Shown: positions 41,754-63,859, counted from the first letter of the stretch. The stretch is 64,000 nt of DNA from an uncultured Chloroflexia bacterium (GCA_963712745.1 CAVQJC010000005.1:32001-96000); one strand, 5' to 3'. Notes: a model not told the origin generated them from the letters alone. A program made the numbers and translations.

Positions 41754-41829
41754 ATGGTGTTCGTGCGTGGATAGGGTACACAGCGCGGCTCGATGACGAC
41801 ACCGATGGGGCCTACACGGCTCGAACCGC
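41754..41829 (-). promoter_or_regulatory. tRNA upstream region, equal to the right arm of the array repeat; -10-like TACCCT at 41773-41778
   Basis: Homologous to the right arm of the array repeats; -10-like hexamer 19 nt upstream of the mature tRNA 5' end. Confidence 0.7.
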
Positions 41830-41883
41830 GGTATCGTCGGGCAGCCTGCGCGCGATGGAAATGCCGGAGTGGGCAGCCACAGA

Positions 41884-42777
41884 TCAACCTCTGCCGATGA
41901 ACTCGAGGATGTCCGGGCAGAGGCGCTCGTCCGAGATGGCCTGCATATGGTCCTTGCCTTCGTAGACACACAGGGTGCAGTCAGGGATCAGGCTGGCGGT
42001 CTCGTCGAGATATCCCTCGGGGAACATGAAGTCGGCATCGCCGCCGATGAGCAGCACCGGGACACCGATCTCGGGCAGGACGGGTCGCGCGTCGAAGGCC
42101 ACCTCGGCCTCGCCCTCGATCAGCACGTCGCTGGCGAACTCGGGGTGCCCGCCGCGGAACCCAATCCGTCCCATCACCTGGCCGAACAGCCAGGCCAGGC
42201 CGGGAACACGAACCTGCGGGAAGTAGTCTTCGAACATCCCCCTGGCGGCTTCGACCGGTCGACCTTTGCTGAGGCGCTCGGCGAACCGGTAGTCGATGTG
42301 TTTGCCGCGCTCGCTCACCTCGTAGCCAGCCAAGGCGATGACGATGTGGTCGAAGCGATCGGGGTGGCGAGCCGCCAGATAGAAGCCGATGATTCCGCCG
42401 TATGACGTCCCGAGCGCCACGTCCACCTTGCCGCCCAATTCCGACTCGATGAACTCAGCGTAGTCGTCGGCCATGTCGGCGATGGAATGCCCCTGCGGCA
42501 TGCCCTGCTTGCGCATGACGTACCAGATCGTGTAGCCCTCGTCGATGAACCGGCGGAACGGGCGAAGCATCATCCGGAGACTGATACCAGCGGGGGCGAA
42601 GTTGCCCGGACCACCGGGCATGAGCAGGAGCGTCTTCGCTCCCTCGCCCCATCGCGCGTACGCCATGCGACTCTTGGACATGCCGGTGACCGGCCTCGGT
42701 GCTCCCATCCAGACCGCCCGGCGTCCGGCGAGGATGGCCACGCCAGCCACGAAGAACAGTGCGATGAGTCGTCTCAT
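41884..42777 (-). CDS. Alpha/beta hydrolase (module 1)
   Basis: PGGPG, nucleophile elbow GTSYGG, GGDAD, KDH. Confidence 0.88.
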   Translation of the reverse strand: MRRLIALFFVAGVAILAGRRAVWMGAPRPVTGMSKSRMAYARWGEGAKTLLLMPGGPGNFAPAGISLRMMLRPFRRFIDEGYTIWYVMRKQGMPQGHSIADMADDYAEFIESELGGKVDVALGTSYGGIIGFYLAARHPDRFDHIVIALAGYEVSERGKHIDYRFAERLSKGRPVEAARGMFEDYFPQVRVPGLAWLFGQVMGRIGFRGGHPEFASDVLIEGEAEVAFDARPVLPEIGVPVLLIGGDADFMFPEGYLDETASLIPDCTLCVYEGKDHMQAISDERLCPDILEFIGRG

Positions 42778-42779
42778 GA

Positions 42780-43628
42780 TCAAACCCCTCTTTCGACTCG
42801 GACGGCGGCTTCCTCGGCTCGCGGCCTGGCGATCGCTCGCACCCGTACCGCCTCGGGCGAGGGAGTGGGCTCCCGACGGAGTTCGGTCGGCAGTTCCTGG
42901 CCGCCGACCCAGGCCTCAATCGTGCGGATGTGCAGGTCGGGTGCCTGTCTTTGCCAGCAGTGGTCAAGGCCGGGCGCGTACCAGGCCTCGCCGTGGGGCA
43001 TGAGCGCGGCAAGGGCCGCGTTGGACGGCCGGTACCAGGCCTCTTGCTCACCTGCGACGAGCAGCGTCGGGTTCGACGTCTCGGCGAGCGGCGGGAGGCG
43101 TTCCATGCTTCCCACGAAGGCACGCCAGAACGCGAGGCGTGACGCATCGCGCAGGTCAGCCTCATCCATGACATTCCCGAATAGCGCTCGGAACCACCGA
43201 GCGTGCTTGAAGGGCAGTGCCGCGGTCAGCACGTACAGCAGAGGAAGCCTCGACGCTCGCGGCCAGTGGATGGGCGTGCCGTCCGCGATCACCCGATCGA
43301 CCAGTTCCGGATGGCGACTCAGCAAGGTAAGCGCGAGTGTCGCCCCCCAGGAGAGTCCCACCACGTGGACCAGCTGCCCTGGGACCCTCGATCCGATGAG
43401 CTCGGCCAGCAGCGCGACGATATGCCCGTTCGATGACGGTGCAAGGTGGTTGCTGCGTCCGAACCCCGGCAGGTCGGGGGCCAGGCAGTGGAAGTGGCTG
43501 AGCTTGGTCATGTGCCCTTGCCAGATGCGCCCGCTCTGACCCATCCCGTGGATGAAGAGGATGTCCGGTGAGCCCGGTGTCCCTGACTCCTCCACGTACA
43601 TGCCACCCAGGTACTTGGGGTGGCTCAT
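42780..43628 (-). CDS. Alpha/beta hydrolase (module 1)
   Basis: FIHG, PDLPGFGRS, GLSWG, GLDHCW. Confidence 0.88.
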   Translation of the reverse strand: MSHPKYLGGMYVEESGTPGSPDILFIHGMGQSGRIWQGHMTKLSHFHCLAPDLPGFGRSNHLAPSSNGHIVALLAELIGSRVPGQLVHVVGLSWGATLALTLLSRHPELVDRVIADGTPIHWPRASRLPLLYVLTAALPFKHARWFRALFGNVMDEADLRDASRLAFWRAFVGSMERLPPLAETSNPTLLVAGEQEAWYRPSNAALAALMPHGEAWYAPGLDHCWQRQAPDLHIRTIEAWVGGQELPTELRREPTPSPEAVRVRAIARPRAEEAAVRVERGV

Positions 43629-44137
43629 CTCGTCACCCCGACGGTGTCCTCTTCGGAGTCAGACCGCGGTTCCAGGACCACGACCGCCATCTCGCGCGAC
43701 AGCCTGGCGGCATCACTGTCGATGTCGCACATGAAGCCCACGCCGGACCGCTTGCCGAAGTCGCGCCACAGGGCCCACAGGCGCTTCCGTTCATCGCCCT
43801 CCGCCGCCCGTGCCCGAACGGGATGGATCCCATCTTTCAGCCGGACGACGGCATCGGGGCAAGCCTGGAGGTTGAGCCACCACGCAGGGTCCGCGTCGGA
43901 CCACCCGTTGAACGGGATGATGACGAGGTTCGCGCCATCCTCCAGGTAGCCGATGATCGCGCTCCGCTCCCTGCCCGAGTGGCGACCGACCGTCATGAGA
44001 CACATCTCTCCCCAACGATCGGATCTCGGGCGTGATAATGCGAGGCGCCCTCCCGAGAGCCGATGGACGGTGCGCTGGGCAGTCCCGAACCCACGGAAGA
44101 ACCAGGGAGGAGGCAGGCGCCGACGCTCGCTGCTCAT
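43625..44137 (-). CDS. Nitroreductase family deazaflavin (F420)-dependent oxidoreductase (module 1)
   Basis: TVGRHSGRER, NG..DPAWWLNLQA, VVVLEPR; ATGA coupling. Confidence 0.85.
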   Translation of the reverse strand: MSSERRRLPPPWFFRGFGTAQRTVHRLSGGRLALSRPRSDRWGEMCLMTVGRHSGRERSAIIGYLEDGANLVIIPFNGWSDADPAWWLNLQACPDAVVRLKDGIHPVRARAAEGDERKRLWALWRDFGKRSGVGFMCDIDSDAARLSREMAVVVLEPRSDSEEDTVGVTR

Positions 44138-44778
44138 GCCGACGCATCTGCCGGCTTCGTGCCTCGGGCGAGCAGCGCCTTCGAGAACACCGGCATCACC
44201 GAGACGGTGACATCGCCGAAGCCGGCCTCCTCCACCAGCCGCTGTGCGGCGTCGTCGGTCCACTGCCACTGGCCCCACTTGTCGACCACGCCCTCGGTCG
44301 CGCCGGCCGGCGCCTCCCCTGCCTCACCCAGGGTGACTGCCAGCCGACCGCCCGGACGCAGGACCCGGTGCATCTCCTTCAGCGCCGCCAGCGGATCGGG
44401 GAAGAACTTCATGGCGTTGACGGAGGTAGCGACGGTGAAGCGGCCGTCGTCCCAGGGCAGATGGTCGGCATCGCCCTCGACGATCTCCGCGGTGCCCGCG
44501 GTGATGCGCTCGGCCAGGCGGCGCCGGGCCGCCTCGAGCTGCAGCGCCGAGGCGTCGAGACCAGCGACGTAGCGCACACCTCCCGCGTGGTCGACGAACA
44601 GCGTCGCCGAGCCACATCCGACGTCGAGCAGCTCATCGTCGGGCTGCAGGTCCAACTCCGCGGCGATCGCCTCGTGGAATGGACGGCTGCTTCTCGGCAT
44701 CAGCCTGACGCCGAGTCGTCCGGGCAGGCCGTGCGGTACTCCGAAGAATGACATCCACCAACTTCGGCGCAGACCCAT
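44134..44778 (-). CDS. Class I SAM-dependent methyltransferase (module 1)
   Basis: LLDVGCGS, GDADHLPW, EMHRVLRPGG. Confidence 0.92.
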   Translation of the reverse strand: MGLRRSWWMSFFGVPHGLPGRLGVRLMPRSSRPFHEAIAAELDLQPDDELLDVGCGSATLFVDHAGGVRYVAGLDASALQLEAARRRLAERITAGTAEIVEGDADHLPWDDGRFTVATSVNAMKFFPDPLAALKEMHRVLRPGGRLAVTLGEAGEAPAGATEGVVDKWGQWQWTDDAAQRLVEEAGFGDVTVSVMPVFSKALLARGTKPADASA

Positions 44779-44799
44779 CGCACGTCCCCCCATGCACAC

Positions 44800-44902
44800 G
44801 GGCCGGGTTCGCCAGTGGCTCGGCGCGGTCCTCAGCGGCCATGATCGACGGGCCGCGCGTCCTCGCCTCCCGCTAGGTCCGATTATCCCGTGGCAGCCAA
44901 GC
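44800..44902 (-). repeat. Leader motif B, copy 1
   Basis: GGGTTCGCCAGTGGCTC...CAGCGGCCATG...GCCTCCCGCTA...ATTATCCCGTGGCAGCCAAG; shared with 50654, 56783, 59634, 63010. Confidence 0.8.
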
Positions 44903-44962
44903 CCGATGTCTGGAAGGGGCGGCTAATCGGGCAGCTATGCCGCCATCATCTGGCGTCGACCG

Positions 44963-45171
44963 GATCACGCTCGCGAACCGCACAATAATCGACGCCTTCG
45001 CCGCTCGGGGCGCCACGCTCACAACCCCCGCAGCCTTCGCCGCTCGAGCCTGAAAGGCTCCCAAAGCATGTGCGCTACCGCTGCGCTACACCCCGACGTG
45101 GTTCGTGCGTGATTAAGGGTACACAGCGCGCCTCGATAGCGACGCCGATGGGCCTACAGCACTCGAACCGC
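44963..45171 (-). repeat. Array repeat R1 (tRNA-Pro 5' half at 45057-45095)
   Basis: CACGCTCGCGAACCGCAC...GCTCCCAAAGCATGTGCGCTACCGCTGCGCTACACCCCG...AGGGTACAC...CTCGAACCGC. Confidence 0.95.
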
Positions 45172-45312
45172 GCGATATGCCGAACGGGTCAGTCTCGCGC
45201 CATGGGCCTCGATCCGGAGCATGCCAAGGTCGTATCCATGGGCCCCAGGTCGGCGCTGTGCGACTCGAGGCGACGCTGCCGCCAGCCGGACGCTCGTCGT
45301 TCCTCCGCCAGG

Positions 45313-46500
45313 CTACTCGCGACCCGACTGCCGTGCGAGGTCGCGCTTGAACTCATCGATCTCGGGGACCGAGATGACCGACTCGCTGAGCCAATCGGGC
45401 AATCCACCCACCGCAGCGAGGTCGACGTTCGAGCCACCCATGCGCTGGACGTACGCTGGATCGGTCACGATGAACTCCCAGGGATGGACCTCCGCCATAC
45501 GGGTCACGATCTGCTCCGCCGTGATGTTCACGACGGTGTAGTCCTGGGCTAGCGTGAACGGGCCGCGGTAGCCGGTGCGGAGACCATCGAGAATCGGCTG
45601 CGGCGTCCCCGGAGCGATCATCGCGTGATAGCCCATGGCCATGCCCGGCTTGGTCGCCTCGAAGACCTTCGCGGCGGCCTGCGGTGCGGTGTGCATCGTC
45701 CAGGCGACGGTCCTCGCGATGAGCTCGGGCCAGCCCATCTTCTCCATGTACATCTCCGGCGGATTGAAGATCTCATGGATGAGGAGATCGACGCCCTTGG
45801 CATTCTCGACGGTGAAGGTCGATGGTTCGCAATCGCCGGCGTACACCAGCGACAGCCCCGCGTAGTCCAGGCGGTAGCCGACCGCACCGAAGATGGAATG
45901 TGGCACCGGGAACGCGCGGATGGCGACGCCGTCCTCTTCGTAGATGAGGGTCGCCTCATCCGCCGCGAAACGATGCGGCGTGATCTCGTACACGCGCGGA
46001 TCCAGCCCGGCCTTGGCGCGATCATGCCAGGTCGCCAGACGCTTGATGGCGTCCACGACAGCCTCGGTGGACTCACCCTCGCCGCTGCCGTCGGGTCCGT
46101 GGATGTGCATCGGCTCGAGCCGCCCGTTCGTCTGGCCGAAGTCGTAGTAGACGGGCAGGTCGGCGATGTGATCGAGGTGGAAGTGGGTGATGAAGAACCG
46201 TGTCGCCTTCCAATACGGCAGTCGCAGCGTGTTGAAGGCCATGTTCGTGCCCGGGCCGGCATCGAAGATGAAGCTCTGTCCGTTGCCGCACTCCACGAGC
46301 CAGCCGGCGCAGCCCTGGCCCCGCCGTGCCGGATAGCCGGTGCCCAGGGCGGTGACGCGGACCTCCGCCCTCGCCAACTCCTCGGACTCGGGCGTATAGC
46401 GGTCCGGATAGGTACGTCGCTCAGCAGACTCGTCCTTCACCACGACCGGATGCGTCGTCAGCGGCACGCTGTGGTACGGCTCGGGTAGTCGCTCAGCCAT
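45313..46500 (-). CDS. MBL-fold metallohydrolase (RNase Z / AtsA-like) (module 2)
   Basis: ALGTG, FDAGPG, THFHLDH, VPH, YAGD, LIHE. Confidence 0.9.
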   Translation of the reverse strand: MAERLPEPYHSVPLTTHPVVVKDESAERRTYPDRYTPESEELARAEVRVTALGTGYPARRGQGCAGWLVECGNGQSFIFDAGPGTNMAFNTLRLPYWKATRFFITHFHLDHIADLPVYYDFGQTNGRLEPMHIHGPDGSGEGESTEAVVDAIKRLATWHDRAKAGLDPRVYEITPHRFAADEATLIYEEDGVAIRAFPVPHSIFGAVGYRLDYAGLSLVYAGDCEPSTFTVENAKGVDLLIHEIFNPPEMYMEKMGWPELIARTVAWTMHTAPQAAAKVFEATKPGMAMGYHAMIAPGTPQPILDGLRTGYRGPFTLAQDYTVVNITAEQIVTRMAEVHPWEFIVTDPAYVQRMGGSNVDLAAVGGLPDWLSESVISVPEIDEFKRDLARQSGRE

Positions 46501-46664
46501 CTTCGTGCCTCCCTTGGGCTGTGGTTGAACCTGCTCGACATCGACGGTACCGGGTTTGGCCAGGGTCGACGCGGCAGAGGTTCCCCGGCAGCGTGCAACC
46601 GATGCAGGCAATCGCTACGGTAAGGCCCACCGGCCTCACGTCGCAGCCATACAGAGGTACATGT

Positions 46665-49001
46665 ATGCCAGAGCACGATCCAGTCGTGGATGGATCTACG
46701 CTTCCGTTTCCCAAGCCCAAGTCTGGCAGCGTGGCCGGCCGCACGATGCAAGAGTCCATCTACGACCCGGCGCCCCCACCACAGCGGCTGCCGGCTGATG
46801 CGCCGAACATCCTGATCATCCTGATCGACGATGCCGGGCCAGCGCTGCCGGAAGCGCTGGGCGGTGTCGTGCACACCCCGACGCTGGAGCGAGTCCTCTC
46901 GGAGGGGATCGGGTTCAACCGCTTCCACACGACAGCCATGTGCTCGCCCACCAGGGCCTCGTTGTTGACGGGCCGCAACCACCACCGGGTCGGCAGCGGC
47001 GTGATGACCGAGTTCGCCAACGACTGGGATGGCTACTCGGGCGTCATCCCCCGCAGTAGCGCCCTCCAGGCCGAGGTGCTGCGACAGTACGGCTACGCCA
47101 CCGCCGCGTTCGGCAAGTGGCACAACACCCCTGGGATCGAGACGTCGGCGGCCGGGCCGTTCGACAATTGGCCGGCTCGCATCGGGTTCGAGTACTTCTA
47201 TGGGTTCCTCTCGGGTGAAGCCTCACAGTACGAACCGAACCTCGTCCGCAATACGACCCCGGTCCTGCCGCCGAAGACGCCGGAGGAGGGATATCACCTG
47301 AGCGAGGACCTCGCCGAAGACGCGGTCCGCTGGCTCCAGACGCACAAGGCGGTGCAGCCCGACAAGCCCTTCTACCTGTACTGGGCGAGTGGAGCCGTCC
47401 ATGGCCCCCACCACGTTCACAAGCAGTGGGCTGACAAGTACCGTGGCATGTTCGACGACGGCTGGGACGCCTATCGTGAGCAAGCGTTCGAAGGCGCCAA
47501 GGCGAAGGGCTGGATCCCGGAGACCGCCGAGTTGACGCCCCGGCATCCGACGATGCCGGCGTGGGACGATCTCCCAGAGGACCAGAAGCCGTTCCAGCGC
47601 CGCCTGATGGAAGTGTTCGCCGGCTTCGGCGAGCACGCCGACGTACAGGCGGGCAAGGTCATCGATGAGATCGAACGCCTCGGCTACGGGGATAACACCC
47701 TGGTCGTCTACATCTGGGGTGACAACGGATCATCGGGCGAGGGCCAGCAAGGAACCATCAGCGAGTTGATGGCGGTGAACGGTATCCCCTCCACGGTCGA
47801 GCAGCACATCGAGGCCCTCGACACGCTCGGCGGGCTCGATGTGCTTGGCTCACCGCTCGTCGACAACATGTACCACGCTGGGTGGGCGTGGGCGGGCAGC
47901 GCCCCCTACCAGGGCATGAAGCTGCTCGGATCGCACTTCGGTGGAACCCGGAACCCGATGGCCATCCGATGGCCCGCGAGGATCACACCCGACGCGAGAC
48001 CGCGATCGCAGTTCCACCACTGCAACGACCTCGTGCCCACTATCTACGAGCTGCTTGGCATCACGCCGCCGCAGACCGTGAATGGAGCCCCCCAGGACCA
48101 GATCGATGGGGTGAGCCTGGCCTACACCTTCGATGACCCTGACGCCGAAGGGCGCCTTCGCACGCAGTACTTCGACATCATGGGTAGCCGGGCGATCTAT
48201 CACGACGGCTGGATGGCCTCCGCCATCGGGCCACGGCTGCCCTGGGTCCCAGGTCTCGACCCGAAGATGTTCGAGTGGACACCCGACAAGGACGTCTGGG
48301 AGCTCTACAACCTCGAGGAGGACTGGTCGCAGGCCCATGACCTCGCCGGGGCGATGCCCGAGAAGCTGGCGCAGATGAAGGAGGTCTTCCTCATCGAAGC
48401 GGCCAGGAACAAGGCCCTGCCGATCGGCGGCGGGCTATGGATCCCCTTCCATCCTGAGTTCCGTGCCGCATCGCCGCAGACCGAATGGACCTTCGCAGGC
48501 GACCTCGTTCGCATCCCGGAGCCCGTCGCGCCGGGGCTGGGCAACAGGCCCAACGTCGTCACCATCCTCGCGGACGTGCCCAGCGACGCCACCGGTGTGC
48601 TCTACAAGCTTGGTGCTGGCTCTTCTGGCGTCACGCTGTTCGTCGAGGACGGCCACCTGGTCTACGAGTACAACCTGTTCATCATCCAGCGAACCCAGAT
48701 CCGTTCCGCCACCAAGCTTCCGGTCGGCAAGGTGGAGATCCGAGTGACGACCCTGCCGGTCGAACCGCGCCCCTCGGGTCCCCTGCAGGTGATGCTCGAG
48801 GTCAACGGCGACGCCGTGGGCGAAGGCACCGTCCCGGTCAGCATCCGTACGAGCTTCACGGCCAACGACTGCCTGGACATCGGGCAGGCGCTCGGCTCTC
48901 CAGTCTCGCTCGACTACCGTGACCGGGCACCGTTCAAGTTCAACGGCACGATCGAGCAGGTCCAGGTGAGGTACCTACCACCGGCGCAGCCGTCAGCGTA
49001 G
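46665..49001 (+). CDS. Arylsulfatase (formylglycine-dependent) (module 2)
   Basis: IDDAG, CSPTRASLLTGR, FGKWH, GDNG; RBS AGAGG. Confidence 0.95.
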   Translation: MPEHDPVVDGSTLPFPKPKSGSVAGRTMQESIYDPAPPPQRLPADAPNILIILIDDAGPALPEALGGVVHTPTLERVLSEGIGFNRFHTTAMCSPTRASLLTGRNHHRVGSGVMTEFANDWDGYSGVIPRSSALQAEVLRQYGYATAAFGKWHNTPGIETSAAGPFDNWPARIGFEYFYGFLSGEASQYEPNLVRNTTPVLPPKTPEEGYHLSEDLAEDAVRWLQTHKAVQPDKPFYLYWASGAVHGPHHVHKQWADKYRGMFDDGWDAYREQAFEGAKAKGWIPETAELTPRHPTMPAWDDLPEDQKPFQRRLMEVFAGFGEHADVQAGKVIDEIERLGYGDNTLVVYIWGDNGSSGEGQQGTISELMAVNGIPSTVEQHIEALDTLGGLDVLGSPLVDNMYHAGWAWAGSAPYQGMKLLGSHFGGTRNPMAIRWPARITPDARPRSQFHHCNDLVPTIYELLGITPPQTVNGAPQDQIDGVSLAYTFDDPDAEGRLRTQYFDIMGSRAIYHDGWMASAIGPRLPWVPGLDPKMFEWTPDKDVWELYNLEEDWSQAHDLAGAMPEKLAQMKEVFLIEAARNKALPIGGGLWIPFHPEFRAASPQTEWTFAGDLVRIPEPVAPGLGNRPNVVTILADVPSDATGVLYKLGAGSSGVTLFVEDGHLVYEYNLFIIQRTQIRSATKLPVGKVEIRVTTLPVEPRPSGPLQVMLEVNGDAVGEGTVPVSIRTSFTANDCLDIGQALGSPVSLDYRDRAPFKFNGTIEQVQVRYLPPAQPSA

Positions 49002-49066
49002 CCGAGGTCGTAGCCCGACCGCGTCGAATCGGGCTACAGGAGCAGGCGTGAGTTGCTCAAGGCCGG

Positions 49067-49277
49067 CACGCTCGCGAACCGCACAATAATCGAGGCCTTC
49101 ACCGCTCAGCTCGCCACGCTCGAAGCCCCGGAGCCTTCACCGCAAACCCCTCCTAGGCTCCCAAAGCATGTGCGCTACCGCTGCGCTACACCCCGATGGC
49201 GTCTGTGCACGGATAGGGTACACAGCAGGGCTCGATAGCGACACCAGAGAGCCTACAGCGCTCGAACCGCACAATAA
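49067..49277 (-). repeat. Array repeat R2 (tRNA-Pro 5' half at 49157-49195)
   Basis: Same architecture as R1; GAACCGCACAATAA at both ends. Confidence 0.95.
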
Positions 49278-49429
49278 CGGCTGCAGAGCGCAAGTGCTCA
49301 TCCCGCGACTGGGGTGTGACGGGCGTGGTCGCCAGATGCCCTTCCATACCGTCGTGACCAAGCACCATCACAGGCGGACGGGGAACCCGGGTCCTCGGCT
49401 TGGGCCGAGGACCCGATCCGGCAAGTCAG

Positions 49430-50629: not shown

Positions 50630-50653
50630 AGCATTCCCCCATCTGGTTCGCGG

Positions 50654-55202: not shown

Positions 55203-56072
55203 CTACGTGGGGAGATCTGAGCGTCGCAGCCGCTCGACGGTGACTGGTGACGGCGCGGCTTCGGGTCGCAGCTCCGTCGGCAGTTCCTGTCCGGTCAGCC
55301 AGGCCTCGACCATGCGGACGTGCAGGTCGGGTGCCGTGAGCTGCCAGCAATGCCCCAGACCGGGCGCGTACCACGCCTCGGCGTCCTGCATGACGGCCGC
55401 CAGTGCCGCATTGGAGGCTCGGACGCCGAGTCCGTCGAGGTCATCGGTCTCCGCCTCCCCGGCGACGAGGAGCGTCGGGCACGAGGCGCCGGTCGCGGCA
55501 TAGGACCGGAAGGCGTCGGCGACTGTGCCCAGGTACGCCCGGCGCGACGCGGCGCGCACATCCTCCTCGCCCAGGAGTTCACCGAGCCTCCTGACCACTG
55601 GCCGGGTGTGAAGGAACGGCGTCACCATGACGGTGGCCAGGAGCGTCAGGGCACGCGCGCCCCTCGGGACGATGACTGGGACGCCATCGGTGATCGCCCG
55701 CTGGACGCGGTCGGGGTGGCGGTCCAGCAGGGCATGGATGACCACGCCACCCGAGCAGAGACCGACCACGCTCGCGCGACCCGAAGGGACGTGCGACCCG
55801 ATGAGCGCGGCCACGATGTCCGCCGTCTTCCGCAGCGACGCTGCGGGCAGGTGATTGCTGCGCCCGAACCCAGGCAGATCCGGGGCCAGGCAGTAGAAGT
55901 CGGTGAGGCCCGTCATGTGCGTTCGCCAGAACCGGGCACTCTGGCCGGCCCCGTGGAGGAAGACGACAGCTGGGGACTTCGGGTCGCCAGACGCCTCCAC
56001 GTACATGCCATGGGGCCCGGGCTCCGCCTTGCGGACCGTGGCGGAGTGGTCGAGCACCTCGGGCGCGTTCAT
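55203..56072 (-). CDS. Alpha/beta hydrolase, paralog of 42780-43628 (module 7)
   Basis: GMYVEASG, FLHGAGQS, PDLPGFGRSNHL, WYAPGLGHCWQ. Confidence 0.88.
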   Translation of the reverse strand: MNAPEVLDHSATVRKAEPGPHGMYVEASGDPKSPAVVFLHGAGQSARFWRTHMTGLTDFYCLAPDLPGFGRSNHLPAASLRKTADIVAALIGSHVPSGRASVVGLCSGGVVIHALLDRHPDRVQRAITDGVPVIVPRGARALTLLATVMVTPFLHTRPVVRRLGELLGEEDVRAASRRAYLGTVADAFRSYAATGASCPTLLVAGEAETDDLDGLGVRASNAALAAVMQDAEAWYAPGLGHCWQLTAPDLHVRMVEAWLTGQELPTELRPEAAPSPVTVERLRRSDLPT

Positions 56073-56764
56073 GCCACGGACGCCTTGACGGGCATCTGTC
56101 GCTCTGGGGCGCTGGCCACCGCGGTGGATGCCGGTTTGACAGCCCGGACGAGCTGGGACTTGGAGGGCACCGGCAGGACCGTGACGCTGATGTCGGTGAA
56201 GCCTGCCTCCTCGACAAGCCTGGCCGCGTCGACGTCGCTCCAGAACCAGACGCCCCAAGCGTCGCGCGTACCCGACTTGTCGGTCCGCCCCAAGAGGGCC
56301 TTCGTGTTGTCGCCCATGGTGAAGACGGCGCGTCCACCGGGTCGCAGGACGCGGTGCATCTCAGCCAGCGCCCCTCCCGGGTCGGACGTGAACTTCATGG
56401 CGTCGAGGGAGGTGACGACGCCGAAGCGGGAGTCCTCCCAGGGCAGGTCCGCAGCATCGCCGAGGACGATCTCGGCCGTCCCCGCGGCGATGCGTTCGGC
56501 CAGACGCTTTCGGGCCATCTCGATCTGGAGCTCCGAGGCATCGATGCCGGCCACGTAGCGGACGTGAGCGGCGTGCTCGGCGAAGAGCACCGCCGATCCG
56601 CAGCCGACGTCGAGCAACTCGTCGTCGGCCTGGAGGTCGAGCTCGGCGGCCATGGCGCGATGGTACTTGCCCTTCATCGACGCCAGCAGCCGGGCACCGA
56701 TCCAGCCGAGCGGACCGTGGGGCACTCCCAGCAACGCGTAGTCGAACGATCTGCGCAGACCCAT
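56069..56764 (-). CDS. Class I SAM-dependent methyltransferase, paralog of 44134-44778 (module 7)
   Basis: MGLRRS, LLDVGCGS, GDAADLPW, EMHRVLRPGG. Confidence 0.92.
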   Translation of the reverse strand: MGLRRSFDYALLGVPHGPLGWIGARLLASMKGKYHRAMAAELDLQADDELLDVGCGSAVLFAEHAAHVRYVAGIDASELQIEMARKRLAERIAAGTAEIVLGDAADLPWEDSRFGVVTSLDAMKFTSDPGGALAEMHRVLRPGGRAVFTMGDNTKALLGRTDKSGTRDAWGVWFWSDVDAARLVEEAGFTDISVTVLPVPSKSQLVRAVKPASTAVASAPERQMPVKASVA

Positions 56765-56782
56765 CGCACGTCCCCCTTGCGC

Positions 56783-56883
56783 GGGCCGGGTTCGCCAGTG
56801 GCTCAGCGCGGTCCTCAGCGGCCATGGTCACGGACCGTGCGTCGGAGCCTCCCGCTACCCACCATTCTCGCGCGGCCGCCAAG
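56783..56883 (-). repeat. Leader motif B, copy 3
   Basis: GGGTTCGCCAGTGGCTC...CAGCGGCCATG...GCCTCCCGCTA...ATTCTCGCGCGGCCGCCAAG. Confidence 0.8.
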
Positions 56884-56947
56884 ACCATGGTGCGGTCGGA
56901 ACCTATCAGCCGGGCGGCAACGAGTGAGCATCATGCAGGCTGCCACG

Positions 56948-57165
56948 GATCACGCTCGCGAACCGCACGATGATCGAGGCTTTCGCCGCTTCCCCGGCCA
57001 CGCTCACGCCCCCGGAGCCTTCGCCGCTCGAGCCTAGAAGGCTCCCAAAGTATGTGCGCAACCGCTGCGCTACACCCCGACGAGGTTCGTGCCTGACTAG
57101 GGTACACAGCGGAGCTCGACAGCGACATCTGAAGGCCTGCAGCGCTCGAACCACACGATGATCGA
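56948..57165 (-). repeat. Array repeat R7 (tRNA-Pro 5' half at 57041-57079)
   Basis: Same architecture; GAACC(G/A)CACGATGATCGA at both ends. Confidence 0.95.
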
Positions 57166-57176
57166 CGGCGGGCGGT

Positions 57177-57704
57177 CTACTCGGGCGCGGACCTCCTGGT
57201 GAGACGACGGAGCAACGTCATCAGATCGGTGCGTGCGTTGAAGCTCGCCTCGGGCAATCGGTCGGGGGTGCTTCCCTCCCGTGGGACGAGTCCGATTCTG
57301 CCGCGCGAACGCAAGCCCATCGAGACAGATGGTGTTGTGCACGAGTCGACGGTCCTAGAAGGACATGACGTCACTGCCGCGGAACTCGACTCGTCGGCCG
57401 GTGGGGTGTCTGCCCTGGAAGGACCCGCCCGAGAACGTCCCCGTTCCCTGCCACTCGACCACAGCCATGTCGCCCTCAGCAACGACGCCGAGGACCTCGC
57501 TCCTGAAGTCCGGGAACGCCGCGGACCACTCGGTGAAGAACGCTTGGACGGCCTCGCGGCCATTCCAGGACGCCGACCGGCACGGAGTTCGTCCACGAGG
57601 TCCGGAGCGTAGTTGGCCTTCATGGCCTCGAGGTCGTGACGCGAGACCGCATCCATGAGCGCCCGAGTTCGTTCTGCGATAGATGTGCTGGCGTCGATAG
57701 ACAT
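57177..57704 (-). pseudogene. SnoaL-like ester cyclase, disrupted (module 8)
   Basis: N-terminus MSIDAS...YAPDLVDE, frameshift to AVQAFFTEWSAAFPDF...VVEWQGTGTFSG...PTGRRVEFRG, internal TAG near 57355, second frameshift. Confidence 0.75.
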
Positions 57705-57753
57705 CAAGGACAACCCTCGGCTGGACGGCTCATCTGGACAACGAGCAACGGGT

Positions 57754-58194
57754 TCAGCTCCCAGCTTCGGCTTCCTTCGGCGCGATGATCTTCGCCAGCA
57801 GCGGCTGGTCGATGATGTAGTCCTTCGCTGAGCGTGCCTTGCCACCCTCGACCACGAACGCCGTCACACCGGTGAGCTGGGAGCAATGGCCATCGTGATC
57901 ACCCTCTTCGAGGTCCCACTCCACGTGCACGACGTTGGAGTTCGAGACCGCCCAGACGTTCTCGACCGAGACGTGTCGAACGGTGAAGCGCGTCACCGGC
58001 ATCGTCTCGAACCAGTTCGCGAACCACTCACGGTTGGCCTCGCGTCCCTCGAAGCGGCCGCTCCTGACGGTCTCGCCCGGGAACTCGAAGACAGCATCCT
58101 CGTGGAACAGCTCGGCCACCGCGTCAGGGTCCCGTCCGTTGACCGTCGCGTAGCCCTGTCGCACCGCTCGCTGCATCAAGACCGCACCGATCAT
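57754..58194 (-). CDS. NTF2/SnoaL-like protein (module 8)
   Basis: FHEDAVFEFPG..SGRFEGRE..WFANWF, VHVEW; RBS AGGAGG. Confidence 0.85.
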   Translation of the reverse strand: MIGAVLMQRAVRQGYATVNGRDPDAVAELFHEDAVFEFPGETVRSGRFEGREANREWFANWFETMPVTRFTVRHVSVENVWAVSNSNVVHVEWDLEEGDHDGHCSQLTGVTAFVVEGGKARSAKDYIIDQPLLAKIIAPKEAEAGS

Positions 58195-58210
58195 GTCGTC
58201 CCTCCTTTGG

Positions 58211-59575
58211 CTAGGCTCGTACCCCGTAGCCGACCTGCAAATCGTCGCTCGGCGAGTGGACCTCGACCGCATCGAAGCCGGCATCGTGCAGTAGCTGCGC
58301 AAGCTCCTCGTCGCTGTAGAGCGTGGCCTTGTGCAGGAACCAGCCCACGGCACGAGTGCCGACGTCCTCGCGCTTCGGCTTGGGCATGGTCACGACCACG
58401 AAGCGACCGCCGGGCTTCAGGACCCTGACGGCCTCGTGCAGGACCCTTGGCGGGTCGGCGGCGAGGAAGAGTGCCGCCAGATTGGACTCCGCGTCGAAGG
58501 TGGCGTCGTCCCAGGGCAGCGCGGTGGCGTCACCGAGGCGCACCTCGAGGCGGCCCTCGGCCACTGCCCGAGCGTTGTTCTCCCGTGTCAACTCGACCAT
58601 ATCCGGGCTGTGGTCGATGCCGGCAGCCTGGTCGACCGTCTCGAGTGCCTGCGACAGGAACGTCCCGCCACCGCAGCCGACGTCAAGCAGATGGTCCGTT
58701 GGCGCCAGAGCGAGCTTCTCGTGGCAGGCGCGCCAGCCCTCGCCGTGCATCGAGGTCGCGTCTCGGTAGAGCATCCGGCCGATGGGTCCGCTGGGCCGCG
58801 AGATCGCCATATCCGTCAGCCGATCGACGATGTCACGACCTCGCAGCATGAGCAGCGCCGCACCGGCCACAGCCGCGCCAGCGAGCGCGAGGAGGAATCG
58901 ACGCCTAGCCACCAAGCCCATGAGTCCGACGATGGCTGCGACCGGCCAGACCCATATCAGATCGAGCGGGAGTGGCGCCGGCCCGGGCTCGTCGACCGGG
59001 TCGAGACGGACGACGTGGATGCGCTCGATGTCCCGGGCGAATCCCTCGGGGCTGTCCTCGACCCCCAGGTCAGCGAGGTACTCGTGGAACCGGCGACGGA
59101 CGCCGTGTTCGAGTATCGCGTACTGTGCGACCGCCTCGTCATGGTCGGTGGGATGGGCCGCGCGGGCCGTCCAGGTGCCGTGGGCATCCTGGATGGTGAC
59201 GATGGGGTCGGCCACCAGGTTGCGATACCAGTGGGCCCGGTCTCCATAGGGGTTCCATAGGTACCTGCGGCCCTCGATCTGGGCCCCGCCAATGACGATC
59301 CGTCGGGGCAGCCCGCTCGCTCGACCCGTGGTGGTGAGGACGACGTCACCCTCGATCCGGCCCAGCCCGAGCCTCCACAGGAGCATCGGAGCCCGGTGCG
59401 CGAGGCGGACCAGGAGTGTGTCCGGGTAGGCGGCGAGTCGGTCTTCGATGCGATCGTAGAGCTGGTGCAGCCGCGAGCCCATACGGTCGGCTGGCGTCAC
59501 GCCGGGCAGTCCAGCCGTGCCGGTGTCGGCATCCTGCTCCAGCCGTGATGCACTGGTCGGGGCGGTGGCGACCAT
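58211..59575 (-). CDS. Fusion: deazaflavin-dependent nitroreductase domain + TM segment + SAM methyltransferase (module 8)
   Basis: LTTTGRASGLPR, WYRNLVADP; hydrophobic linker; LLDVGCGGG, GDATALPW, RVLKPGG. Confidence 0.85.
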   Translation of the reverse strand: MVATAPTSASRLEQDADTGTAGLPGVTPADRMGSRLHQLYDRIEDRLAAYPDTLLVRLAHRAPMLLWRLGLGRIEGDVVLTTTGRASGLPRRIVIGGAQIEGRRYLWNPYGDRAHWYRNLVADPIVTIQDAHGTWTARAAHPTDHDEAVAQYAILEHGVRRRFHEYLADLGVEDSPEGFARDIERIHVVRLDPVDEPGPAPLPLDLIWVWPVAAIVGLMGLVARRRFLLALAGAAVAGAALLMLRGRDIVDRLTDMAISRPSGPIGRMLYRDATSMHGEGWRACHEKLALAPTDHLLDVGCGGGTFLSQALETVDQAAGIDHSPDMVELTRENNARAVAEGRLEVRLGDATALPWDDATFDAESNLAALFLAADPPRVLHEAVRVLKPGGRFVVVTMPKPKREDVGTRAVGWFLHKATLYSDEELAQLLHDAGFDAVEVHSPSDDLQVGYGVRA

Positions 59576-59633
59576 CGGCTCCCCCTGCTCGAAGCGGGTC
59601 GCGAGCGCCCGCACCAGCCGGTGGCGTTCACCG

Positions 59634-59671
59634 TCCCCGCTGACCTTGATTCTCTCGCGGCCGACAAGCCG
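59634..59671 (-). repeat. Leader motif B, partial copy 4
   Basis: CCCCGCTGACCTTGATTCTCTCGCGGCCGACAAGCC. Confidence 0.55.
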
Positions 59672-59746
59672 GGTGCGCCTGGCTCAGCTGGGCGGGACCG
59701 TTGGGGTGCCGGGCAGTCCGCCGAAGCGACGAAGCGGCCGGCATTT

Positions 59747-59957
59747 CACGCTCGCGAACCGCACGATAATCGAGGCCTTCGCCGCTCCCCCGGCCACGCT
59801 CACGCCCCCGGAGCCTTCGCCGCTCGAGCCTGAAAGGCTCCCAAAGCATGTGCGCTACCGCTGCGCTACACCCCGACGAGGTTCGTGCCTAGAGAGGGTA
59901 CACAGCACGCCCCTATAGCGACACAAAGGGACCCACAGCGCTCGAACCGAACACGAT
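59747..59957 (-). repeat. Array repeat R8 (tRNA-Pro 5' half at 59837-59875)
   Basis: Same architecture as R1. Confidence 0.95.
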
Positions 59958-60081
59958 CTGGTCCACGAACGCTGGGTCGTCATCACTGAACGTTGGCCAC
60001 GCTCTCGTACCGCACAATGATGTGGGTAGCGGCGGCTCGGGGCACCGGGCAGGTCCGCAGAAGCAGCGAGGAGCCGATGCC

Positions 60082-61137
60082 ATGACATCGTCACCGCCAC
60101 CGCCACGGCCGATGCCTTCGAGCCTGACGCCCGTCGGCAAGCTCGGCTTCCGCGGACGCGCGGCCACACCCGAGGAGCGGGCCCGCATCTTCGACGCACT
60201 GTTCTTCGAGGGCGCGCAACGGATCCCCTACCTGCAGCAGTACTTCGTGCTCATGTTGCTCTCGGCCGCGATCGCCGCCTTCGGGATCGTCAACGACAGC
60301 GCCGCAGTGGTCATCGGGGCCATGCTCGTGGCACCGCTGATGACGCCCATCCTCGCGGTCGCTGCGGCGATCGTTCATGGCTGGGGCCGCCGGGCCCTCG
60401 AGTCGCTGCTCATCGTGGCTGCCGGTGCCCTCGCCGGGATCGGCGTCGGCATCGCGGTCGGATGGCTGGTCCCGAACGTGAACACGGGCCTGCCGTTGCC
60501 GGGTGAGCTCCTCGCGCGCACGAGCCCGAACCTCGTCGACCTGTTCATCGCGCTCGCCGCCGGTAGCGCGGCCGGCTTCGTGACGGTGCGGACCGAGGCT
60601 AGCGGTGCCTTGCCGGGCGTGGGCATCGCGGTAGCGCTGGTGCCACCGCTCGCGACCATCGGCATCACCATCGGCCTTGGAGACTGGGGACTCGCCTGGG
60701 GGGCGCTGTTGCTGTTCGCGACGAACCTCGTGGCCATCGTCCTCGCGGCTGGCGCGGTGCTCCTCGCGGCCGGGTTCGCGGCGTTCCGTGACCTCGAGGG
60801 CGCCCGTAGTGCCTCGCTCGCCACCAAGCTCGTCTGGATCGGCCTCCTCATCGTCGCCGTCCCGCTCGCGTTCCAGTCGTGGGCCCGCTACCAGGAGAGC
60901 GTGGCGCGCGGGCACATCGTCGAGGCCATCGAGACCTGGGCTGCCGACCTCAGAATCCGCGACGTGCACATCGACCGCTCGGCCGACCCGGTCCTCGTCG
61001 AGGTCACGGTCGTGGGACCCGAGGAACCGCCGCCGCCAGGCAGGCTGGCCGAACTCACGGCAGAGGATCTCGGACGACCGGTGCGGCTGGAGGTGACCTG
61101 GGCACCGATGACGGCGGTCGAAGCCCCGGCTCCCTAG
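60082..61137 (+). CDS. DUF389-like membrane protein (module 9)
   Basis: DSAAVVIGAMLVAPLMTPI, ELLARTSPNLVDL, LPGVGIAVALVPP, LLFATN. Confidence 0.88.
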   Translation: MTSSPPPPRPMPSSLTPVGKLGFRGRAATPEERARIFDALFFEGAQRIPYLQQYFVLMLLSAAIAAFGIVNDSAAVVIGAMLVAPLMTPILAVAAAIVHGWGRRALESLLIVAAGALAGIGVGIAVGWLVPNVNTGLPLPGELLARTSPNLVDLFIALAAGSAAGFVTVRTEASGALPGVGIAVALVPPLATIGITIGLGDWGLAWGALLLFATNLVAIVLAAGAVLLAAGFAAFRDLEGARSASLATKLVWIGLLIVAVPLAFQSWARYQESVARGHIVEAIETWAADLRIRDVHIDRSADPVLVEVTVVGPEEPPPPGRLAELTAEDLGRPVRLEVTWAPMTAVEAPAP

Positions 61138-61273
61138 GCTGGGCCCGACGGTGCGCACGGGCGATAGCCAACGGCGCCGCACGAACGCGTCTATCGATCG
61201 AGAACGTGTGCGCCCGTCTGGGTTCGCGATCCGGACCGCTGGCGACAACCGGGGCCTCTGCTCGAGGCGTGAC

Positions 61274-61485
61274 CGTGCTCGCGAACCGCACGATGATCGA
61301 GGCCTTCACCGCTCGGGCCATCTCGCTCAGGACCCCTGAGCCTTCGCCGCTCGAGCCTGGAAGCCTCCCGAAGCATGTGCGCTACCGCTGCGCTACACCC
61401 CGACGGAGTTCGTGCCTGGCTACGGGTACACAGCGGGCCTCGATAGCGACAACGACGGGCCTACAGCGCTCGAACCGCACGATGA
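61274..61485 (-). repeat. Array repeat R9 (tRNA-Pro 5' half at 61364-61402, anticodon variant CGG)
   Basis: Same architecture; loop reads TTCGGGA on the minus strand. Confidence 0.93.
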
Positions 61486-61632
61486 CCCCGAACCGCTCGA
61501 AGTCGTGGACGTTGGACTCCGGTCGCAACAGGCAGACTCAGGGCCCGTGGCCGAATCCGGGTCCCGCGGTGAGGCACGGGTGGACTTGGGCGGTCAGCTC
61601 GCACCCATCCGCAGCTGTCTCGTCGGCGTCGC

Positions 61633-62229
61633 TCAGCGTGGCAGCGGGTTCGGGCCGGTCGCGGTCACGAGCCGCTGTGGCATCCAGTCGTCGACGTGGT
61701 GGAACCCGTCCTCGAACTGACGACCATCGAGCTCGACTGATGCTCGCAGCGAAAGTCGATAGAACTTCACGTGCGTGAAGTCCTCGAACAGGATGTAGAC
61801 GGGGTCGGGTGTGCTGTTCGGGCCTTGGAACTGCTGGCCCGTCAGGACGGGCTTGTGGACTTCGACGAACGTGTCGAACGTGTCGCCCACGACGACGCCG
61901 AGGTGTTCCAGGCCCATCTTGTAGACGCGCTGATGGACCGGGGGAATGAGCTCGATCATCGGAACCTCCTTGTCGTCAAGCGCCTCTAGCGGCTCGGCGG
62001 GAAGGATCAACGAGATCGGCCGACCGTTCCAGAGGTTCTCGAGGTTCGAGGTCGCGTGGCGCTCCAGGAGCGTCCGGACGTGGACGTACTGGTCCCACTC
62101 GGGCACGCGGAACGCAAGGTGGCTAAGCGCGTATGGGGCGATGTCGATGCCGCGCTCCAGTAGGCGGTCGCGCTGTTGGGCCGCGAAGGCTCGGTAGTCC
62201 CCGATGATGTCGCCTACCGGATCGGCCAT
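61633..62229 (-). CDS. VOC family (YecM-like) protein (module 10)
   Basis: SHLAFR, NLWNGRPI, IELIPP, GLEHLGVV, VKF; RBS GAGGAGG. Confidence 0.8.
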   Translation of the reverse strand: MADPVGDIIGDYRAFAAQQRDRLLERGIDIAPYALSHLAFRVPEWDQYVHVRTLLERHATSNLENLWNGRPISLILPAEPLEALDDKEVPMIELIPPVHQRVYKMGLEHLGVVVGDTFDTFVEVHKPVLTGQQFQGPNSTPDPVYILFEDFTHVKFYRLSLRASVELDGRQFEDGFHHVDDWMPQRLVTATGPNPLPR

Positions 62230-62334
62230 CGCCTCCTCCTCTCGGTCGCCATCGTACGATACTGTGCAGCGAATCTGGAAGCTCAGCGGCATCACGCCCA
62301 TCGGCTAGGCAGCCCGTCGCCCGGTGCGGTATGC

Positions 62335-62481
62335 CACGCGCGCGAACCGCACAATGATCGAGGCGTTCGCCGCTCGCGCCGCCGCGCTCAGGACCCCGTC
62401 GCCTTCGCCGCTCGGGCCTGAAGGGCCCCCAAAGCATGCGCGCTGCCGCTGCGCTACACCCCGACGAGATTCGTGCGTGGA
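62335..62481 (-). repeat. Array repeat R10: left arm plus tRNA 5' half (62425-62463), right arm missing here
   Basis: Similarity stops after TCGTGCGTGGA. Confidence 0.9.
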
Positions 62482-62788
62482 GGGGAATTGAGCGACTGAT
62501 CGACCGGGAGTGTCCGCCGGCACTGCTTCCATCCGTTGCATCCAGGGCTCACCGAGGACCTGCCCGATTCGCAGCGATTGGCGGACACGGACCATCCGTA
62601 GCTCCCGCCGAGCGTCGAGCGCCCCGAATGACAGCCCTTACAGCTTGCCTGGCCGGCTCGCCTGAGGCATCGTGTGTGCTGCAAGAGCGCAGGCTGACGG
62701 CATGCAGGGGAAGCTGCGCGGGAGGAACCCAGATGAACGCTCCCGACCCCCAACCGCGTGTCGGTGACATAGGCGGAGGTGGGGGCTC

Positions 62789-63000: not shown

Positions 63001-63009
63001 TGACGCGGA

Positions 63010-63082
63010 CCAGCGGCCATGGTCCGCGAGCCGCGCGTCGTCGCCCCCCGCTACCCTCGATTATCCCGTGGCCGCCAAGCCG
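63010..63082 (-). repeat. Leader motif B, copy 5 (truncated)
   Basis: CAGCGGCCATGG...CCCCGCTACCCTCGATTATCCCGTGGCCGCCAAGCC. Confidence 0.75.
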
Positions 63083-63142
63083 GGAGTCAGAGTCAGGCGG
63101 CTCGCTCGAGCAGCCAGGCCACCAGCGTCTGGACCCTGCCGC

Positions 63143-63219
63143 GCGTAGATAGGGTACACATCGGGCGGCCCGCCGGCGGTAGCGGAGGGGCCTACAGCGC
63201 TCGAAGCGCACGATAGTCG
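63143..63219 (-). repeat. Orphan right arm of the array repeat
   Basis: GCGTAGATAGGGTACAC...GGCCTACAGCGCTCGAAGCGCACGATAGTCG without tRNA half or left arm. Confidence 0.85.
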
Positions 63220-63250
63220 GCCTTCGCTCGACCGCAATGGTTCCGTCTTG

Positions 63251-63859
63251 TCACATGGCCAGGCCTTCCGCTCGGTCGCGGATAGTGAGCATCTGCTTCC
63301 GCACCATCAGGAGCACGACGAGCCCGATCACCCGCATGGCGGCCGCACTCACGCGACGCGGGAGGGCCGGACGAGACCGGATGCGCTCGACGAGACGGGA
63401 CCGCCGGCCGCCCTCCATCGGCTCGAGGATGAAGGCCCAGCTCCAGCTGCCGGCGATGTCGCTGTAGAGGACCAGTGTCCGCTCGGGCTCGAGCTCGCGT
63501 ACGACCCACTCGTTGATGGGGTCGCCCACCGTCAGGTCCTGCCACTCGGGCACGATGCGGTCGGCCCCTTTGCGGTGCGGGAGGCCGAACACCGAGTAGC
63601 TGTACTCGCCACCCCGGTCATCGCCCATCTGCACGAGCCACGGCCAGACGGCCGACGGCGGGGCCGCGATCTCGAGGGTTCGCGTGTCGACGGCGACCGG
63701 GTCCACCACGAGGTCATCACCGGGTAGCGCACTGGCACTCAAGACGGGATCGATACCCCACGAGACCATGCGCTCCCAGATGCCGCTGAGATGCAGCGCC
63801 GTCGCCGCCGTCCCTACCACGCCGACGGTCGCCAAGCCGATCGCCAGCACCTTGCCCAT
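63251..63859 (-). CDS. SRPBCC-like protein
   Basis: LPGDDLV, IAAPPSAVWPWLVQMG..RGGEYSY, ADRIVPEWQDL, SWAFIL. Confidence 0.85.
   Translation of the reverse strand: MGKVLAIGLATVGVVGTAATALHLSGIWERMVSWGIDPVLSASALPGDDLVVDPVAVDTRTLEIAAPPSAVWPWLVQMGDDRGGEYSYSVFGLPHRKGADRIVPEWQDLTVGDPINEWVVRELEPERTLVLYSDIAGSWSWAFILEPMEGGRRSRLVERIRSRPALPRRVSAAAMRVIGLVVLLMVRKQMLTIRDRAEGLAM

Follow-up and report, generated by a model that had tools for sequence, protein, structure and literature searches.

The likely role of a recurring TACCCT motif in a cassette array at a tRNA-Pro gene of an uncultured Chloroflexia bacterium

What does the DNA upstream of a tRNA gene do once it has been copied, together with half of the gene, into a row of gene cassettes? 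The question is raised by 64,000 nucleotides (nt) from an uncultured Chloroflexia bacterium (GCA_963712745.1, contig CAVQJC010000005.1), which are here called the window and correspond to contig C5:32001-96000 of genome G000; other G and L labels denote genomes and loci of the comparison set. The sole tRNA gene of the window is a tRNA-Pro(tgg) on the minus strand (41679-41753, identified by ARAGORN). To its right the opening 39 nt of the gene recur many times, together with about 95 nt from upstream that include the hexamer TACCCT, and each copy has a left arm of about 90 nt. Directly observed are the anatomy of this array, the conservation pattern of its units, the strand statistics of the cargo and the leader elements within the cargo. 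The reading that we favour, with a probability of roughly 55%, is that of an array of junction units at the anticodon loop of tRNA-Pro(UGG), in which TACCCT is the -10 element of a portable tRNA promoter and the displaced copies are spare parts, not the principal drivers of the cargo.

The repeats are junction units of about 225 bp in an integrase-less gene-cassette array at a proline tRNA gene. Each unit is composed of the left arm, the tRNA half and, as right arm, the tRNA-upstream DNA. In the live gene the hexamer reads AGGGTA on the plus strand (41773-41778), i.e., TACCCT on the strand of the tRNA, 19 nt from the tRNA 5' end; the hexamer coordinates below likewise refer to AGGGTA on the plus strand. 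This string occurs ten times in the whole window, nine times beyond position 41000 and once within the first 41 kb; its recurrence therefore belongs to the repeat and is not due to chance. The units are the following.

41679-41753, minus strand: live tRNA-Pro(UGG) gene; identity to the repeats covers the 5' 39 nt and ends in the anticodon loop
41754-41839, minus strand: array-type right arm upstream of the live tRNA; TACCCT at 41778-41773, i.e., -25 to -20 from the mature 5' end
44957-45189, minus strand: R1 (left arm, tRNA 5' half 45057-45095, right arm); intact hexamer 45116-45121, distance 20 nt
49055-49294, minus strand: R2; hexamer 49215-49220, 19 nt; left neighbour is a plus-strand sulfatase gene, 46731-49001
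50819-51035, minus strand: R3; hexamer 50976-50981, 18 nt
52525-52753, minus strand: R4; hexamer 52681-52686, 19 nt; left neighbour is a plus-strand DUF6326 gene, 52111-52479
53478-53701, minus strand: R5; hexamer 53633-53638, 19 nt
54987-55153, minus strand: R6, with shortened left arm; degenerate GGGGTA 55105-55110 (TACCCC); the cargo below, 53718-54947, begins 40-50 nt from the arm
56940-57172, minus strand: R7; hexamer 57099-57104, 19 nt
59738-59966, minus strand: R8; hexamer 59895-59900, 19 nt
61269-61497, minus strand: R9; degenerate CGGGTA 61423-61428 (TACCCG); left neighbour is a plus-strand DUF389 gene, 60112-61137
62328-62485, minus strand: R10, left arm and tRNA half (62425-62463), right arm lost, no hexamer; the cargo below, a YecM-like gene (61633-62301), begins 27-35 nt from the arm
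63140-63225, minus strand: orphan right arm; intact hexamer 63151-63156

The original prediction had reported TACCCT upstream of the live tRNA and its retention in R1-R5, R7, R8 and the orphan arm. These positions are correct, with 18-20 nt to the half-tRNA, and R6 and R9 are indeed degenerate. The half-tRNA of R10 is a tenth copy that was missing from the earlier list.

The array runs beyond the window. On C5, a profile of the unit detects one live copy and 18 displaced units or fragments between 73713 and 110179; outside the array it detects two further fragments on the same contig (120908, 122515) and eight hits on other contigs. Unit matches were seen in 21 of the 36 genomes drawn from the genus (Chloroflexota, metagenome-assembled genomes (MAGs) of Ca. 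Limnocylindrales), and in all eight relatives first fetched the array starts at tRNA-Pro(tgg). An exact 24-mer across the joint of half-tRNA and left arm has 25 matches among genome contigs, all of them from MAGs of Ca. Limnocylindrales or of uncultured Chloroflexia; pattern scans of viral and of metagenome contigs, made in search of free elements with the unit, gave 0 matches each. The cassettes measure 1-4 kb and mostly hold one to four genes, and the same cassettes are found in different genomes at differing array positions. Their cargo is ordinary accessory metabolism plus toxin-antitoxin genes, as judged by Pfam: alpha/beta hydrolases, S-adenosylmethionine (SAM) methyltransferases, F420H2-dependent reductase-like proteins, the metallo-beta-lactamase fold, sulfatase, the serine beta-lactamase family, SDR, Phd, PIN and others.

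Why should a hexamer upstream of a tRNA be copied faithfully? The live tRNA-Pro(UGG) gene, present as a single copy, owes its 5' half and its upstream DNA to an array unit in 15 of the 18 genomes compared; such a unit therefore has a working promoter or is read through. In a divergent, array-less member of the genus the upstream region is unrelated, and a canonical GGTATGAT lies there at -14 to -9. For this reason the array-type arm appears to be element-borne and to have been obliged to bring a substitute promoter for a single-copy tRNA. TACCCT would then be conserved because a unit that recombines with the live gene must rebuild not only the 5' half but also the expression of an essential tRNA. 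The comparison of live and displaced copies fits this idea. TAnnnT is kept in 15/15 array-type live arms versus 31/43 displaced copies (Fisher p = 0.025), and the displaced copies show 11 changes at T-12, A-11 or T-7 versus 5 at the three middle positions. Retention is thus lower and the key positions are not spared, which argues for relaxed constraint and not for maintenance. Of the displaced copies in this genome, the first 10 include 8 intact ones, and the 8 distal copies or fragments (orphan arm included) only 2. A displaced copy, freed of the selection that acts on the live gene, would slowly decay.

The same data may be explained in another way: the motif could persist simply by recent copying and by gene conversion among units (concerted evolution), and the displaced copies would be silent relics. 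The decay of the distal copies agrees with this view, and so does the finding that the inner unit (tRNA half, leader, -10 and mid segment) is unlinked to either neighbouring cargo. Four pairs of units share the cassette on the right; their outer right boxes have 0.83-1.00 identity, while their -10 segments do not rise above the background of 0.77-0.79, and in an alignment the break falls at the outer box. Yet a copy in which an active promoter is preserved with its start region, about 95 nt from upstream and the 39 bases transcribed first would, by the usual behaviour of bacterial promoters, be expected to fire, and no sign of silencing is seen in the unit. We therefore consider complete silence very improbable. 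The portable promoters that remained intact upon displacement probably still start some transcription.

Whether TACCCT is a promoter element at all deserves a closer look. TAnnnT starting at -26 to -11 is found upstream of 22 of the 47 tRNA genes of this genome versus 5 of 47 in a control window further up; these sites are mostly TGCTAnnnT, with the mode at -17. Within 110 nt upstream of the live gene, TACCCT is the best site by position weight matrix (PWM). It may be called the best but weak -10 candidate of the unit. Several facts weigh against it. Its score is 3.5 bits, a value that about 0.19% of random genome positions reach, as compared to 5.6-18.3 bits for the 21 training sites. TACCCT starts at -25, further out than the mode, and the preceding bases are GTG, neither a TGn nor the usual TGC extension of this genome. 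A consensus scan of 41600-61500 for pairs of -35 and -10 elements gave 0 promoter-like sites, and the -35 zone comprises at least two unrelated sequence types among live genes. In 3 of 18 genomes (G008, G009 and G034) the live gene has a different arm without the motif. Finally, the conservation of the motif block does not exceed that of the tRNA half, the leader block or the outer boxes, and a second box (GCGCTGT..CCC), conserved as well and located 45 nt upstream, is similar to it; the block could thus be a protein-binding site.

The latter point leads to an alternative, in which TACCCT is no promoter. The block CTGTGTACCCTA would be a binding site for a recombinase or an accessory protein in an attP-like unit, and the tRNA would be transcribed from elsewhere or by read-through from upstream cargo; the gene upstream of the live tRNA (41884-42783) is in fact co-oriented with it. 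The build of the unit lends some colour to this proposal: the whole 225 bp consist of conserved boxes split by variable stretches, the block resembles GCGCTGTAGGCCC in the outer right arm, and the outer boxes, CGCTCG(C)GAACCGCAC, repeat on both arms. Moreover, the three bases in the middle, CCC, show the same degree of conservation as T, A and T, although a TAnnnT -10 makes no demand on them. The weak score, the missing -35 and the three motif-free live genes point in the same direction. What speaks for a -10 is the kind of variation that is tolerated. T, A and T are kept in all 15 array-type live arms, and the only live variant, TACTCT in G001, affects a middle base; changes at the key positions are confined to displaced copies, apart from the variant arms that lack the block. 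The position of the hexamer also lies within the range of the tRNA -10 sites of this genome, and the recombinase has not been found, hence there is no footprint with which the block could be compared. On balance, a mere binding site appears unlikely, and TACCCT is somewhat more probably than not the -10 of the unit's tRNA promoter, as far as sequence comparison can tell. Most likely this portable promoter, located within the upstream part of the unit, would be independent of a -35 element.

If the copied promoters are active, what do they do to the cargo? The original prediction had stated that 17 of 21 cargo genes lie on the minus strand, downstream of and co-oriented with the displaced promoters. 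For 41754-63859, a home-made gene caller based on codon usage counts 15 genes on the minus and 3 on the plus strand, and the open reading frames (ORFs) supported by Pfam amount to 14 and 3. The proportion (81-83%) is thus sustained; the exact number of genes is not, since it hangs on short unsupported ORFs. The comparisons across arrays that follow have a drawback: they depend on the home-made caller and on relatives that share cassettes, and the figures are rough. The whole array of this genome has a ratio of minus to plus of 24:4, as compared to 53:41 in 15 related arrays. Over the 16 arrays, with four loci of fewer than two unit hits left out, the cargo totals 77:45 versus 144:70 for flanking genes (Fisher p = 0.47). 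The gene that adjoins the left arm is on the minus strand in 13 of 17 intervals here; in the relatives it is minus in 19 and plus in 16 of 35. The strand bias is therefore local, not general, and the plus-strand cargo must have promoters of its own. It has to be conceded that within this genome the bias exceeds that of its own flanks (11:9, p = 0.025), which fits the original prediction.

The window has eight intact displaced hexamers. Five face a co-oriented adjacent gene (R1, R3, R5, R7 and R8), those of R2 and R4 face a plus-strand gene, and that of the orphan arm faces an unsupported ORF. Many cassettes have leaders of 100-200 nt with signals of their own, of which four in the window are listed here.

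44792-44879, minus strand: c-di-GMP-II-GAG riboswitch-like aptamer (RF03169, 55.5 bits, gathering score 40) in the leader of a methyltransferase cassette; a box ending in GATAATC abuts its 5' end
50644-50728, minus strand: c-di-GMP-II-GCG riboswitch-like aptamer (RF03170, 57.1 bits, gathering score 47.9) ahead of the gene at 49430-50629
53412-53429, minus strand: candidate own promoter of the Phd-antitoxin cassette, TGCTAAGGT, an extended -10 (TAAGGT 53421-53416), followed by AGGAGG and the ATG at 53379
56775-56861, minus strand: c-di-GMP-II-GAG riboswitch-like aptamer (RF03169, 52.5 bits, gathering score 40) ahead of a methyltransferase/hydrolase cassette

Six further aptamers above the gathering score are present in other loci (L001 2049-2135, 5486-5572 and 16507-16590; L003 16125-16213; L011 12322-12409 and 18006-18091). 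With the exception of one copy outside any array, the nine aptamers share the strand of the cargo and sit between its start codon and the left arm; the cargo that follows is mostly of the SAM-methyltransferase type. The 5' end of each of the nine is marked by a conserved box, GGCTTGGCGGCC..GAKAATC, ending in GA(T/G)AAT, which is outside the Rfam model; the box is retained in the aptamer at L001 16507-16590, which has no unit upstream. Similar boxes are seen at 59619-59671 and 63030-63082 of the window, with no Rfam match at E up to 1.

Among the five co-oriented cassettes of the window that adjoin an intact hexamer, three have a riboswitch-like leader and a fourth a canonical extended -10. Compared with random 150-nt segments, 4 of 13 minus-strand cassettes have in their own leader a -10 score beyond the 95th percentile. 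Leaders of at most 50 nt are found in two cassettes, and both of these sit below units that have no proper hexamer to offer, R6 (TACCCC) and R10 (none). The cassettes that would seem most in need of an outside promoter are thus those without one. A riboswitch, of course, says nothing about where its transcript starts, and cassettes with such leaders could therefore also receive transcripts from the unit.

Could such transcripts reach the cargo? The RNA material comprises contigs of three RNA libraries, in addition to one DNA run (X1), at a depth of 2-6 and without strand information; 32 of 685 pieces were listed. RNA-library contigs cover cargo of both strands (42200-43833, 46813-48591, 49735-50462 and 52339-52513, with 0-3 differences each) as well as left arm plus half-tRNA (44975-45110 and 49072-49196, about 91% alike). 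The listed pieces include neither a transcription start nor a bridging piece, and they speak neither for nor against firing. DNA carry-over may contribute to the contigs, and one of them extends past a predicted start. A consensus scan for terminators found 4 sites versus 4.7 expected, nothing above shuffled sequences, and RNAalifold, applied to 29 units, predicted 33 pairs of which none covaries; the left arm has no conserved hairpin. With terminators at chance level and no covarying hairpin, nothing was found that would halt read-through. By the same result, a conserved terminator or an attC-like fold of the unit is unsupported.

The original prediction, in its full form, proposed that cargo without promoters is driven mainly by the displaced tRNA promoters, which are distributed over the array where integrons have a single Pc promoter, and which might also yield small RNAs made of tRNA halves. 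Co-orientation of 24 of the 28 cargo genes, conservation of the hexamer in 8 of 11 displaced right arms of the window, the lack of a terminator excess and the RNA-library contigs on both unit and cargo are in its favour. Its first component, junctions that fire into cassettes, retains a basis insofar as the copied upstream DNA holds the best -10 candidate and TAnnnT is found in every array-type live arm. Its second component, the junctions as drivers of the cargo, has suffered: the strand ratios of the related arrays, the own promoters required by plus-strand cargo, the riboswitch-like leaders and extended -10 sites inside the cassettes, the short leaders below defective units and the decay of displaced hexamers at key positions all disagree with it, and the RNA contigs are shallow, unstranded and possibly DNA carry-over. 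In its full form we regard it as quite unlikely. That the units drive cargo was a reasonable hypothesis, which is weakened by the comparative data and now appears only partly supported; read-through from units into cargo may occur. An intermediate view would be that of a dual-purpose unit, which rebuilds the tRNA and, once displaced, acts as a constitutive promoter of half-tRNA-led transcripts into co-oriented cassettes, the riboswitch-like leaders gating the output; there would be one promoter per cassette versus one Pc. This we consider unlikely too, if a little less so. We prefer to see the displaced copies as spare parts that may add read-through transcripts with a half-tRNA leader to co-oriented cargo. 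They would not be its designed or principal drivers, because the cassettes have leaders or promoters of their own and many point the other way.

How might the array have been built? In all genomes compared, the identity between live gene and unit ends in the anticodon loop; in size the unit matches a complex attP, and both its arms hold repeated boxes. For these reasons we favour a scheme in which a tyrosine integrase, supplied in trans, made serial insertions into the only tRNA-Pro(UGG) gene of this Chloroflexota (Ca. Limnocylindrales-type) bacterium, at the anticodon loop; homologous exchange between units may have come afterwards. On each arm the outer box goes together with the cargo next to it, and the linkage fades from both outer boxes towards the center; the mid segment, with 0.55-0.76 identity versus a background of 0.59, is only weakly linked. 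A given copy of the motif is therefore no stable partner of a given cargo. As the inner unit is not linked to the cargo on either side at the level of identity that the cargo itself shows, these data do not fix the point of crossover, which is a weakness of the anticodon-loop scheme. Shared-cassette blocks that start at the anticodon loop are uninformative, since one partner is always the live gene. The linkage pattern would be accounted for by a fixed site plus gene conversion, by crossing over within the outer boxes or by homologous exchange alone.

The scheme further suffers from the absence of an obvious enzyme. This genome was searched with PF00589, PF00239 and PF07508, and five relatives with PF00589. 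No recombinase was detected among the 27 + 25 ORFs scanned in and beyond the array, and none turned up close to any of the related arrays. The genome has four PF00589 matches, none on C5: two on C4, 40 kb apart and present as a pair in every relative, one on C12 and one on C17. The Xer-like pair is the only set of PF00589 genes common to the genome and its five relatives, and in two array-bearing relatives, 90-91% complete, it is the only one above the family cut-off. Two other candidates could not be linked to the array. The integrase on C12, paired with a DUF3987 gene, has no unit nearby. An ORF of 526 amino acids with a weak Recombinase hit (22.4 bits; L029 3391-4971) lies outside the window and is not tied to the array; it ends inside or beside a tRNA-Pro(CGG) gene (C5:8950-9026), about 23 kb before the window.

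The use of tRNA genes as integration sites is well documented, and the array shares features with several known systems. In those parts of the Islander survey (PMC4383910) that bear on the matter, 159 islands have a 5' fragment of the tRNA gene (tDNA) versus 3760 with a 3' fragment, the anticodon loop is the commonest sublocation, and four tandems of three or more occur in 2168 genomes, every member with its own integrase. Recombination at the 5'-distal side is likewise described as considerably less frequent in a passage of PMC6563490, which cites Zhao & Williams 2002. The 5' side is seldom used for insertion, since the newcomer has to supply both the missing half of the gene and a promoter. 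As in such islands, we find an intact tRNA gene with co-oriented displaced fragments and identity ending in the anticodon loop; the insert must replace the 5' part and the DNA upstream, and repeated use of the site pushes older inserts outward. Unlike the islands with an integrase each, the 18 displaced units or fragments and cassettes of 1-4 kb described here have no integrase in or near the array.

With integrons, be it sedentary chromosomal ones or CALINs, the array has in common a row of small cassettes that are split by a recurring site and shared across genomes in differing order. The differences are substantial. Integrons have intI, attI and Pc; here there is no intI gene (no PF00589 match on C5) and no single Pc. 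Their attC sites are conserved in structure and variable in sequence, whereas the 225-bp unit with its tRNA half is conserved in sequence (mean column identity 75%), with 0/33 covarying pairs. Integron cassettes are nearly all co-oriented and mostly promoterless; the present ones are mixed and have leader elements of their own.

The tycheposons of Prochlorococcus (bioRxiv 10.1101/2020.12.28.424599) resemble the array in that serial integration at tRNA genes pushes earlier elements into an island with scattered partial tRNAs and cargo. They belong to a different phylum and are characterized by tyrosine recombinases of their own, with replication or packaging modules; the array has none of these, and every cassette here lacks a recombinase. 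The preprint screened for integrase-carrying elements, and the word "promoter" is absent from its main text. The closest precedent for an element that supplies expression signals is that of the dusA-specific islands (PMC4482086): their own sequence replaces the 5' end of the target, and putative -10 and -35 elements lie upstream after integration. In the parts of that paper devoted to these islands, the target is protein-coding, and single large islands with a dedicated integrase are described, with no array and no claim of a displaced native promoter that drives island genes. Literature searches on c-di-GMP-II-GAG, on tycheposons, on Limnocylindrales, integrons and tRNA, and on tRNA promoters and integrases, supplements aside, turned up neither this array nor displaced tRNA promoters as drivers of cargo.

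The 5'-side solution has thus been used repeatedly here, in one of the longest tRNA-anchored arrays among those compared. If the copied promoters have stayed active, transcription would start constitutively and at a fixed point in each junction, and the array would be a natural test of how cassettes are insulated from neighbouring transcription or make use of it. The evidence favours a view of the copies as tRNA spare parts, with the cargo handling its own expression, and the focus shifts to the missing recombinase and to the orphan riboswitch-like leaders before methyltransferase cassettes.

Some minor observations on units and their neighbours may be added. A full unit lies away from any tRNA gene on C17 of this genome (74718-74912; L062 3718-3912), between two genes of the SRPBCC (Polyketide_cyc2) family; the gene left of the live tRNA-Pro (41132-41635) belongs to the same family. 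Center-deleted units, in which profile positions of about 63-80 are joined to about 126-170, are found in G009 (L007), G021 (L010 418-550) and G001 (L016 11388-11568); half-tRNA and -10 block are gone, and the outer parts alone are left. A stretch of 481 nt with a DUF5661 gene is duplicated with 99.4% identity at the far end of the array (C5:109073-109363) and 12 kb beyond (121235-121525), where the second copy adjoins the two unit fragments at 120908 and 122515.

There is a second type of junction, in which the half-tRNA copy is interrupted on the 5' edge of its anticodon loop: C8:96154 (L059, about 4288-6153), C10:7254 and C17:5374. At the C8 junction, two ORFs in the DNA at the left (DEDD_Tnp_IS110 and Transposase_20) specify a transposase of the IS110 family; at the other two junctions, only the end of an IS110-family element remains. 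The same element end abuts R1 in the DNA run X1 (window 45066). The idea that this second junction might be the 3' half of a different tRNA is thereby ruled out, and an IS110-family element seems to target the junction unit. Integrons offer a parallel, as there, too, an IS110-family element sits in the recurring site: IS1111-attC elements target attC.

The run X1 contains one more peculiarity, a joint that goes back 1323 nt from 61308 to 59986 of the window, which connects R9, within its left arm, to the DNA immediately to the right of R8; 7 other letters separate the two sides. The joint would fit a related strain in which the DUF389 cassette exists as a tandem copy or as a circle.

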